Shown piece after piece: positions 29,153 to 31,066 of a DNA stretch of 64,000 bases. Within the stretch, counting starts at the first letter, position 1. Each line of letters starts with the position of its first letter. Made by a program: the position numbers and the translations under genes. This stretch comes from an uncultured Candidatus Rokubacteria bacterium (GTDB taxonomy: Bacteria; Methylomirabilota; Methylomirabilia; Rokubacteriales; DASRDR01), in the NCBI GenBank assembly GCA_963805625.1, contig CAWDVE010000010.1, positions 640,001 to 704,000 of the forward strand, in the 5' to 3' direction. The notes under the pieces are model-generated. The model was not told the DNA's origin. It saw nothing but the letters and a program-made list of their open reading frames with translations, and searched no databases.

Positions 29153-29824
29153 TCAGACCGATTCGCCGTGCGGGACAAGCGGCTCCCAAATCACCACCCG
29201 GATGGGCGTGGGCTCGAGCCCCGCACAGGGATTGTTGACCTGAGGGCAGTTCGAGATCAGCGCGAGCGCGTCCATCTCGGCCCGAAGGTCGACGAAGTCG
29301 CCCGCCTTCGAGAGGCCGTCGACGAACACAGTGTCCGTCAACTTCCCGTCCGGGCCCACCGGCACGTTGGAGAAGAAGTTGAGGTTGGCCACGATGTCGC
29401 GCCGCCCCAGGCCGTATTGGCCGAGCAGCCGGAGGAAGGCTTCGCGGCAGCCGGGAACGTCCTTCACCCCGTACATCATGAAGTTGCTGGGAGCGCTACA
29501 GCAGCCGCCGATGGTGTCGTGCCGGCCACAGGTGTCCTCCACGATCGTGAACATGGGCCGCGCCACATCGGAGTACAGCACGTGCCCGGTGGTGAGCAGG
29601 ATGCTCCGGGCCTTCTTCATGGTGTTGGCTGCGTGATACCGCTCCTCGGGCTGGGTGGCGTGATAGCAGAGAAAGTCCACCCCCTGCTTGCCAGCCTGGT
29701 CCACGATCCGGAGGATCTGGCCTCGCCTCACGACATCAGCCCACCCCTCGCCCGGCGGAACCACGTCGTCGCGGACCACGTGTCCGGGAGGTGAGGAGGT
29801 CGTCACTCCTGATTCACCGATCAT
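29153..29824 (-). CDS. DUF1989 urea/guanidine carboxylase-associated protein
   Basis: RGQILRIVD, GKQGVDF, HDTIGGCCS, NFFSNVP, SNCPQVNNPC. Confidence 0.88.
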   Translation of the reverse strand: MIGESGVTTSSPPGHVVRDDVVPPGEGWADVVRRGQILRIVDQAGKQGVDFLCYHATQPEERYHAANTMKKARSILLTTGHVLYSDVARPMFTIVEDTCGRHDTIGGCCSAPSNFMMYGVKDVPGCREAFLRLLGQYGLGRRDIVANLNFFSNVPVGPDGKLTDTVFVDGLSKAGDFVDLRAEMDALALISNCPQVNNPCAGLEPTPIRVVIWEPLVPHGESV

Positions 29825-29926: not shown

Positions 29927-29955
29927 TTGACTGCTCCCGGCGCCGCCCGTACCGT
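29927..29955 (+). promoter_or_regulatory. Sigma70-type promoter of the cysteine synthase leader
   Basis: TTGACT (29927-32), 17-bp spacer, TACCGT (29950-55); predicted TSS at or near the A of ATG 29962. Confidence 0.65.
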
Positions 29956-29961
29956 GGGATC

Positions 29962-30033
29962 ATGAGATGCTCTCGGCCGGATCGCTGTCGGTGTCGAGCG
30001 CGTGGGCCCGTGGGGGCTCGGGGCGCCTGGTAG
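29962..30033 (+). CDS. Putative Cys-sensing leader peptide MRCSRPDRCRCRARGPVGARGAW
   Basis: 23-aa ORF with Cys codons at positions 3, 9 and 11, lying between the promoter and the terminator upstream of cysteine synthase. Confidence 0.7.
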   Translation: MRCSRPDRCRCRARGPVGARGAW

Positions 30034-30059
30034 AGACGCCGCCGCGGACCGCACCACTT

Positions 30060-30090
30060 GGCCCACCGCCGCCGGGCGGTGGGCCTTTTT
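30060..30090 (+). terminator. Intrinsic terminator (attenuator) upstream of cysteine synthase
   Basis: Perfect 11-bp stem GGCCCACCGCC-gccg-GGCGGTGGGCC followed by TTTTTGCTTT. Confidence 0.85.
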
Positions 30091-30115
30091 GCTTTCGGCA
30101 GATGGGGAGGCTCCA

Positions 30116-31066
30116 GTGACGTCAGGCAGGCGGTCGGCGACGCCCGCCGACCGCTTCGAGCGCGCCCTCGAGCACCCGCTGCTCCAGCGCATCGGGCGGA
30201 CGCCGCTGACGGAGCTGCGCCACCTTCCGCCACCCGGCCTCTCGTTGTACGCGAAGCTGGAGGCCCAGAATCCCGGCGGCAGCGTCAAGGATCGCGCGGC
30301 CCGTGCAATCGTGCTCGACGCCTTCGAGCGCGGCCTCCTGCCGCATCGACGGCTCCTCGACTCCACGAGTGGCAATACAGGCATCGCCTACGCCATGCTG
30401 GGCGCGGCGCTCGGCTTCGGGGTGACGCTCTGCGTGCCCGTGTCGGCCGGCCCGGAGCGCAAGCGTATCCTTCACGCGTACGGGGCGGAGGTCATCGATA
30501 CCGACGCCGGTGAAGGCTCGGACGGCGCGCGTCTCCGGGCGCGAGAGCTGGCCGACCTCCATCCGAACCGCTTCCACTACGTCGACCAGTACGCCAATCC
30601 TGCGAACCCCAGGGCCCACGAGACGGGCACGGGGCCGGAGATCCTCGGGCAGCTCGGCGAGCGCCCGCTGGACCTCTTCGTGGCCGGGCTCGGCACAAGC
30701 GGCACCTTCGTGGGCGTCGCCCGATTCCTACGCCGGGCGAGCGCCGCCACGACGTGCGTGGCCGTCGAGCCCGATGACGGCCTACACGGCATCGAAGGTC
30801 TGAAGCACATGGCAACGGCCGTCGTCCCGCCCATCTTCGAGCCGGCACTCGCCGGACGGCGCGAGCAGGTCACGACGGAGGCCGCGTATGAGATGACTCG
30901 GCGCCTGGCCCGCGAGGAGGGCCTGCTAGCCGGCGTGTCGTCCGGAGCCGCGCTGGTGGCGGCGCTCCGCGTCGCCCGCGAGATGGCGGCGCGCACGGTC
31001 GTGGTCGTCTTTCCGGACGGCGGCGAGCGCTATCTCTCGGAGCGCTTCTGGGAAGAGGCTCGCTGA
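30116..31066 (+). CDS. cysM: PLP-dependent cysteine synthase (CysM/CysK family)
   Basis: IGRTPL, KLEAQNPGGSVKDR, TSGNTG, GLGTSGT, HGIEG, GVSSGA; GGGGAGG RBS before GTG 30116. Confidence 0.9.
   Translation: MTSGRRSATPADRFERALEHPLLQRIGRTPLTELRHLPPPGLSLYAKLEAQNPGGSVKDRAARAIVLDAFERGLLPHRRLLDSTSGNTGIAYAMLGAALGFGVTLCVPVSAGPERKRILHAYGAEVIDTDAGEGSDGARLRARELADLHPNRFHYVDQYANPANPRAHETGTGPEILGQLGERPLDLFVAGLGTSGTFVGVARFLRRASAATTCVAVEPDDGLHGIEGLKHMATAVVPPIFEPALAGRREQVTTEAAYEMTRRLAREEGLLAGVSSGAALVAALRVAREMAARTVVVVFPDGGERYLSERFWEEAR

Follow-up and report, generated by a model that had tools for sequence, protein, structure and literature searches.

The trpL leader of Escherichia coli and the hisL leader of Salmonella are the classical transcription attenuators that act through a leader peptide, and cysteine was long absent from the amino acids under this kind of control. 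According to the portions of the sources available to us, a further attenuator of the classical kind governs ilvB1 of Mycobacterium tuberculosis (PMC13236596), and attenuation by an upstream ORF was stated to be undescribed for cysteine before a translational form of it was shown: mycobacterial leaderless polycysteine sORFs (Ms5788A) act on translation by masking the Shine-Dalgarno sequence (Canestrari et al., 10.1101/834739). Actinobacterial Cys leaders without terminators are presented in the available text of Seliverstov et al. 2005 (PMC1262725). The uORFC-8-2 motif, as described in the part of Brewer et al. 2021 at hand (PMC8632094), is a Cys uORF followed by a terminator, predicted before cysS of Rhodobacterales and with its Cys codons at positions 14-15. 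Finally, the accessible part of de Groot et al. 2014 (PMC4007540) reports a leaderless cysS leader peptide of Deinococcus deserti, with 10 amino acids, two Cys and a mapped start, for which transcription attenuation was proposed.

Here we describe a leader that precedes a cysM-like gene in the window, the 64,000-nt stretch of DNA under analysis. We put at roughly 85% the probability that it is a ribosome-mediated, cysteine-sensing transcription attenuator, with a transcript that starts at the AUG of the mini-gene and with a stalled ribosome that spares the antiterminator. A preliminary description had read the locus as a probably leaderless attenuator of this kind, and the promoter position, the Cys codons, the terminator and the rival helix, conserved in 16 leaders, support that reading. 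This support is strong because of conservation, not because of the single sequence in the window.

Leader and cysM in the window

The features that we read in the leader region are collected in Table 1. The promoter-like hexamers, their spacing and the Cys codons at 29968, 29986 and 29992 lie where the preliminary description had placed them, and the perfect 11-bp terminator with its U-tract (30060-30090 in that description) was likewise confirmed, with 10 G-C pairs and T5. From the position of the -10-like hexamer, the transcript is predicted to start at or beside 29962. The downstream gene had been called a cysteine synthase, and its product agrees with this assignment (NCBIfam cysKM E 4e-89 and cysM E 3e-85, both under the curated cut-offs), with cysteine synthase B as its best PDB match.

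Table 1. Elements of the leader region and of cysM, in window coordinates
Feature	Position	Strand	Remarks
-35-like hexamer TTGACT	29927..29932	+	Direct reading; TTGAC-type hexamer in 16/16 aligned leaders
-10-like hexamer TACCGT	29950..29955	+	3/6 consensus match; 17-nt spacer; 6 nt to ATG 29962
Likely leaderless leader ORF MRCSRPDRCRCRARGPVGARGAW	29962..30033	+	23 aa; stop TAG 30031-30033; homologous 21-24 aa ORFs at 15 other loci
Cys3 (TGC 29968, codon 3), probably not regulatory	29968..29970	+	Codon 3 Cys absent in the other 15 leaders; weak sequestration, -6.2 kcal/mol
Cys9 (TGT 29986, codon 9) and Cys11 (TGT 29992, codon 11), predicted sensing codons	29986..29994	+	Counterpart of the CC/CCC run of relatives
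Predicted antiterminator rod, 72 nt	29998..30069	+	Outer helix GGGCC 30004-30008 with GGCCC 30060-30064; stop codon in apical loop
Intrinsic terminator	30060..30095	+	11-bp stem 30060-30085, 10 G-C pairs; U-tract TTTTT-GC-TTT
cysM Shine-Dalgarno GGGGAGG	30104..30110	+	Direct reading; outside terminator stem, 18 nt past stem
Cysteine synthase family gene, cysM-like	30116..31066	+	316 aa, GTG start 30116; solo copy

The host genome measures 7.27 Mb with a GC content of 69.4%, values consistent with Rokubacteriales. Its scan returned 189 sites at which a promoter is followed by RTG, 40 of them opening a short ORF. Among these 40, none but the window leader has a terminator behind it, and no other reaches three Cys codons. 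A consensus promoter scan did not report the leader promoter because its -10 hexamer matches at only three of six positions. Taken as a whole, the window leader folds no more stably than its shuffles (z -0.56). We set aside an out-of-frame ORF of 50 codons (29967-30119, + strand), whose TGA overlaps the cysM GTG, because its ATG is absent from the other 15 leaders. A divergent DUF1989 / urea amidolyase-associated gene (29153-29824, - strand) shares the intergenic region, and no Rfam riboswitch was found before it.

Conservation of the leader among cysM loci

For comparison we used 191 non-redundant cysM loci with at least 200 nt of upstream DNA, drawn from genome and metagenome collections and from two class searches, which recovered cysM in 9 of 251 genomes of the window's own class (E 1e-80) and in 50 of 301 genomes of the class of a Vicinamibacteria genome (E 1e-95). 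A true orthologue was present in only one of 61 relatives, and it has no leader. By hand count, a Cys mini-ORF with a terminator stands at 17 of the 19 non-redundant loci that are at least 65% identical and have at least 200 nt upstream, related genomes not being independent samples. L002 (77%) and L210 are close homologues without the leader, and L113, L114 and L117 fall outside the 19 for too short an upstream region. A loose detector of Cys ORF plus terminator flagged 38 of the 191 loci, against 12 of 1200 random genes of the own genome as a control. Thirty-two of these were folded; the six left aside were L122, L069, L084, L095 and L068, which look chance-like, and L048, in which the wrong ORF had been flagged. 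Sixteen leaders were aligned, with L035 omitted because its leader is built differently.

All 16 aligned leaders carry a TTGAC hexamer, a spacer of 16-18 nt and a -10 box 6-7 nt ahead of the start codon (6 nt in four, 7 nt in 12), and from this last distance a leaderless mRNA is predicted. The ORFs have 21-24 codons and a TAG stop, and the last Cys of the cluster lies at codon 10-13 in each of them. The relatives carry CC or CCC, while the window and L220 both show C-R-C; L193, the closest leader, comes from a genome of the same order and reads MTRHVALRCCCRHTGEPVGVRGAT. The preliminary description had seen in the dispersed Cys codons of the window a new type of leader, a view we do not retain because, given the runs of its relatives, C-R-C is a local variant of them.

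Cys accounts for 51 of 343 residues in the 16 leaders, an 18.8-fold enrichment over the long ORFs of the genome, and no other residue exceeds 1.9-fold; most other positions of the peptides vary. We asked of these data whether the leader might be coupled to translation yet sense something other than the supply of Cys-tRNA, such as a general slowing of ribosomes, tRNA-Cys modification, oxidative state, or an arrest peptide around R-x-x-G-P. The rare codon TGT is preferred (TGT:TGC is 32:19 in the leaders, against 0.13%:0.71% in the genome), many leaders have Gly-Pro after the Cys run, and at L289 a homologous leader stands before a 1-Cys peroxiredoxin. However, Cys is the sole strongly enriched residue, most homologues precede cysM, and Gly-Pro is a reading of the GGGCC pairing arm, which lies 6-9 nt past the last Cys in 13 of the 16 leaders in two codon registers, and GL, GE or GS take the place of Gly-Pro in some leaders. 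We therefore regard sensing of another signal as improbable.

A covariance-model search of the host genome found no second copy of the leader (best other match E 0.039), and by eye none stands upstream of the genome's two cysM paralogues or of thrS. A sequence-pattern search for the leader in five genomes was unspecific and was dropped.

Many Vicinamibacteria leaders (L211, L212, L216, L217, L218, L221, L115 and L116) have a palindrome like TTGAC-N6-GTCAAG overlapping the -10 box and the start, which the window promoter does not have, and a GAC-N-GTCGGA(T/C)ATG site lies upstream of cysM copies that have no leader (L223, L225, L227, L228, L231, L235, L238 and L143). The palindrome resembles an operator of Rrf2-family regulators (IscR/CymR).

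Terminator, predicted antiterminator and the modelled switch

In the alignment of 16 leaders, 96.3% of the 160 terminator cells are paired, and three pairs show two-sided changes, in 11 cells. None of 500 shuffles reached the observed paired fraction, two-sided cell count or covariation score; two of the five measures, those counting pairs or types, failed to beat the shuffles (121/500 and 177/500). The covarying stem with its U-tract speaks against the idea that control is translational, through masking of the cysM Shine-Dalgarno as at Ms5788A, or that the RNA binds a protein or metabolite. Leaderless poly-Cys ORFs do act by such masking in mycobacteria, by the available text of 10.1101/834739, which bears out what the preliminary description had said of their regulating cys genes. 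Here, however, the Shine-Dalgarno lies clear of the stem, the Cys9/Cys11 tract does not pair with it in the fold, and a search with Rfam covariance models of the window and 15 homologous loci gave no match at gathering score (T-box, SAM riboswitches and leaders included), its one match being at chance level (E 8). We give these explanations almost no weight.

As for the rival helix, the segment GCG-c-GTGGGCC-c-GTGG (29998-30013) pairs with 30054-30069 when the transcript is cut before the 3' arm of the terminator. The antiterminator of the preliminary description is thus recovered in its pairing and is too small in extent, the predicted form being the 72-nt rod. With the ribosome placed on Cys9, the window RNA downstream of it forms this rod at -41.8 to -42.8 kcal/mol, and the same rod appears in the folds of 15 of the 16 leaders.

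To model the ribosome we folded only the RNA downstream of it and took as the metric the energy holding the terminator arm. A pairing-probability metric gave no discrimination in this GC-rich RNA, and masks that permitted pairs across the ribosome gave unrealistic folds. Over the 16 leaders this energy has a median of -9.6 kcal/mol for a ribosome on the last Cys. The median is -5.1, -2.3 and -1.6 one, two and three codons further, and -4.0 once the ribosome is on the stop. The corresponding values for the window are -12.3 (Cys9), -7.8 (Cys11) and -4.7 (codon 12 onward), and sequestration of the arm peaks with the ribosome at codons 8-10; it is weak at Cys3, which is why this codon is probably no sensor. 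By these energies the antiterminator is predicted to collapse 1-3 codons after the last Cys, so that the switch would be set just behind the Cys codons and not at the stop, where the preliminary description had the antiterminator melt.

With the ribosome on the last Cys, the antiterminator beats its shuffles (at most 3 of 50 matching) in 10 of the 16 close leaders and in 11 of the 16 further ones; that of the window was matched by 29 of 50 shuffles and that of L193 by 20 of 50. Ribosome-masked folding, which the preliminary description had proposed as a check, predicts a switch placed behind the last Cys, while leaving the antiterminator of the window within the range of its shuffles. The rod was missed by RNAalifold, run on sequence-only MAFFT alignments, and its outer helix, nearly invariant as it is, cannot covary. 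A swap test weakly favoured the cognate halves (-34.8 versus -32.3 kcal/mol, 95 of 100000 permutations), with the cognate partner first in none of 16 rows. The alignment upstream of cysM orthologues, also proposed earlier, has in this way yielded conserved Cys codons and covariation in the terminator, and weak covariation in the antiterminator.

At equilibrium the terminator wins every full-length fold (-58.9 versus -42.8, or about 16 kcal/mol), and read-through must therefore be kinetic. The equilibrium preference for the terminator in every model, and an antiterminator of the window that by itself does not exceed its shuffles, would also suit a leader that stands alone. It would be a small RNA, or a small peptide rich in Cys, ending at a constitutive terminator, with cysM expressed by leak-through or from another promoter. 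Against this, the U-tract and the cysM start lie only 20 nt apart and no promoter-like site was found between them, the peptide is poorly conserved apart from its Cys, and the rival helix is conserved together with its spacing from the Cys codons. A stand-alone leader appears very unlikely to us.

We infer the start site, translation of the ORF, stalling when Cys-tRNA is low and kinetic control, and with the computed rod they give the following scheme for a cysteine-sensing attenuator. RNA polymerase would start at or next to the AUG of the leader ORF, and a ribosome would load on the 5' end. With little Cys-tRNA, the ribosome would wait on codons 9-11 while the RNA downstream zips into the rod and captures the 5' arm of the terminator, which would let polymerase pass the U-tract into cysM. 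With enough Cys-tRNA, it would move across GGGCC and on toward the tip of the rod, the terminator would form, and a transcript of about 130 nt would be released with its end near 30090. In the folding model the antiterminator arm can be caught early in a local hairpin (30003-30020), and a candidate for the RNA polymerase pause that couples translation to transcription is a hairpin formed locally within 29998-30025. For a leader that lacks its AUG, the model predicts an antiterminator that forms in part (-8.7 kcal/mol), and the response to cysteine would be lost. The one sequencing run consulted, a small-share run, matched scattered parts of cysM and none of the leader, which has no bearing on expression.

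Origin, wider family and comparison with known systems

In a midpoint-rooted tree, the window cysM groups with two genes of the same order and two metagenome loci (support 98/96), and this group sits within a clade of 22 rows, mostly Vicinamibacteria-class genomes (100/99). The 150 genomes sampled from the phylum of the window lie only in families of its own class; the host is therefore not actinobacterial, in line with the preliminary description, and not acidobacterial. We infer from the tree that the gene and its leader were likely transferred from Vicinamibacteria. The simplest reading is a transfer of gene plus leader, after which L002, a sister copy from the same order, lost the leader that L193, from a second genome of the order, keeps.

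Of the 13 other loci of the close clade for which the downstream DNA was read, 11 show by eye a JAMM-like gene behind cysM, and most of these have MoaD- and MoeB-like frames next. The window cysM stands without mec-cysO-moeB partners, and a native rrf2-cysM-moaD-JAMM-like locus (rrf2 read by eye) lies elsewhere on the contig (G000:C10:571513-573500, - strand); this cluster, with its rrf2-like gene, cysM paralogue and MoaD-like and JAMM-like genes, could supply the partners in trans. The solo gene, the native locus, a weak -10, the reduction of CCC to C-R-C and the loss of the leader in L002 might together indicate that the family consists of true attenuators in Vicinamibacteria while the transferred copy in the window is decaying and poorly regulated. 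Yet the terminator is perfect, the frame and cysM are intact, the rod is intact with a sharp modelled switch, and the same leader is kept in L193, so that we hold decay to have a very small probability and prefer a working attenuator in the window as well.

A covariance model of the leader matched in 41 of the 59 genomes searched of the Vicinamibacteria family, and we inspected 20 of these matches, all outside the training set of the model. They comprise two more cysM leaders, one Cys leader before a 1-Cys peroxiredoxin, six leaders with Met/Ile codons before a threonine-synthase-like start (L294, L296, L297, L303, L304 and L308), one with Phe codons before prephenate dehydratase (L307), one before a glutamine amidotransferase domain (L299), three plain terminators, and six members of a second Cys group without an adjacent gene. 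Weak matches occur in 16 of 150 genomes of the window's own phylum, including Thr-rich leaders before thrS-like genes (L264 and L274). What the matches share is mainly the terminator.

At slightly better than even odds, we lean toward a portable and undescribed family of leaderless attenuators shared by Vicinamibacteria and the phylum of the window. One scaffold of leaderless ORF, rod antiterminator and GGCCC terminator would have its sensing codons exchanged to suit the gene behind it: Cys before cysM and peroxiredoxin, Phe before pheA, Thr before thrS and Met/Ile before thrC. It would move between phyla along with that gene, and cysteine biosynthesis would through it have a true transcription attenuator.

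Several observations adjoin this family. Similar scaffolds stand before a dapA-like gene (L266) and a GNAT gene (L271). The peroxiredoxin leader, nearly identical to the cysM type, is a second copy in its genome (G279, L289:1500-2308). The second group of leaderless Cys leaders with a terminator (L292, L293, L295, L298, L302 and L306, in G357, G360, G345, G321, G399 and G381) has no gene behind it; the next 90 nt or so contain the conserved GGAGGTGCG and CGTGCGGCG as well as one more hairpin, and frames in them are not conserved. The group is possibly a cysteine-attenuated small RNA, and four members searched had no Rfam match. Longer poly-Cys leaders with terminators precede distant cysM genes (L048, L151, L189, L110, L067, L092, L039, L138 and L135) in Blastocatellia-like and Vicinamibacterales records and one Bacteroidota record; they are unlike in sequence and possibly of independent origins.

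The mechanism proposed here is that of textbook attenuation and will not surprise a specialist; what is new is a family of cysM leaders absent from the databases and papers that we searched. Full-text searches of the literature turned up neither this family nor a Cys attenuator of the terminator type upstream of a cysteine synthase, a motif that the supplements of RNA-motif surveys or subscription papers could hold, and the available text of PMC8079986, PMC2965389 and PMC13236596 contains no case of a Cys terminator-type attenuator. The novelty claimed in the preliminary description holds to the extent that no match to the family was found, and not for the combination of a Cys uORF and terminator outside Actinobacteria, which the available part of PMC8632094 already predicts before cysS; it was overstated also in view of the leaderless Cys leader before cysS in Deinococcus (PMC4007540, as far as available). 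The family supplies a compact, fully specified terminator-type candidate of 130 nt before a biosynthetic gene, from soil lineages with almost no regulatory annotation, and the leader could serve as a cysteine biosensor. If the portable family is real, it is a true transcription attenuator of cysteine biosynthesis, none having been experimentally demonstrated in the papers searched.

Among the described cysteine systems, judged by the available parts of their descriptions, the D. deserti cysS leader is, like ours, a non-actinobacterial ORF with Cys codons, and it is leaderless with a mapped start where ours is predicted to be so; it has 10 amino acids before cysS where the window leader has 23 before cysM. 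The Ms5788A-type sORFs are leaderless, Cys-rich ORFs that sense Cys-tRNA before cysteine genes, as is predicted for the cysM leader (leaderless by its -10 spacing), but are described as having no conserved terminators, whereas the cysM leader has an intrinsic one. With uORFC-8-2, in which the Cys codons are in tandem, the cysM leader has in common a Cys-codon uORF, an intrinsic terminator and predicted ribosome-mediated attenuation outside Actinobacteria. By its description that motif differs in gene (cysS, not cysM), in lineage and in the position of the last Cys, at codon 10-13 in our leaders; it is also dominated by UGC where the cysM leaders are dominated by UGU, and its first stem holds the Cys codons. 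The cysM leader is outside both the mycobacterial translational class and uORFC-8-2. Like trpL, hisL and ilvB1, it has a short ORF with codons for the end product, a predicted antiterminator overlapping the 5' arm of the terminator, and an intrinsic terminator before a biosynthetic gene; unlike in them, its signal would be cysteine, its antiterminator is a single long rod with the stop codon at the tip, and its modelled switch would fall just past the last sensing codon. It shows every testable feature of the classical leader-peptide transcription attenuators: the ORF of end-product codons, the intrinsic terminator, the mutually exclusive antiterminator and, in the masked-folding model, the switch by the ribosome.
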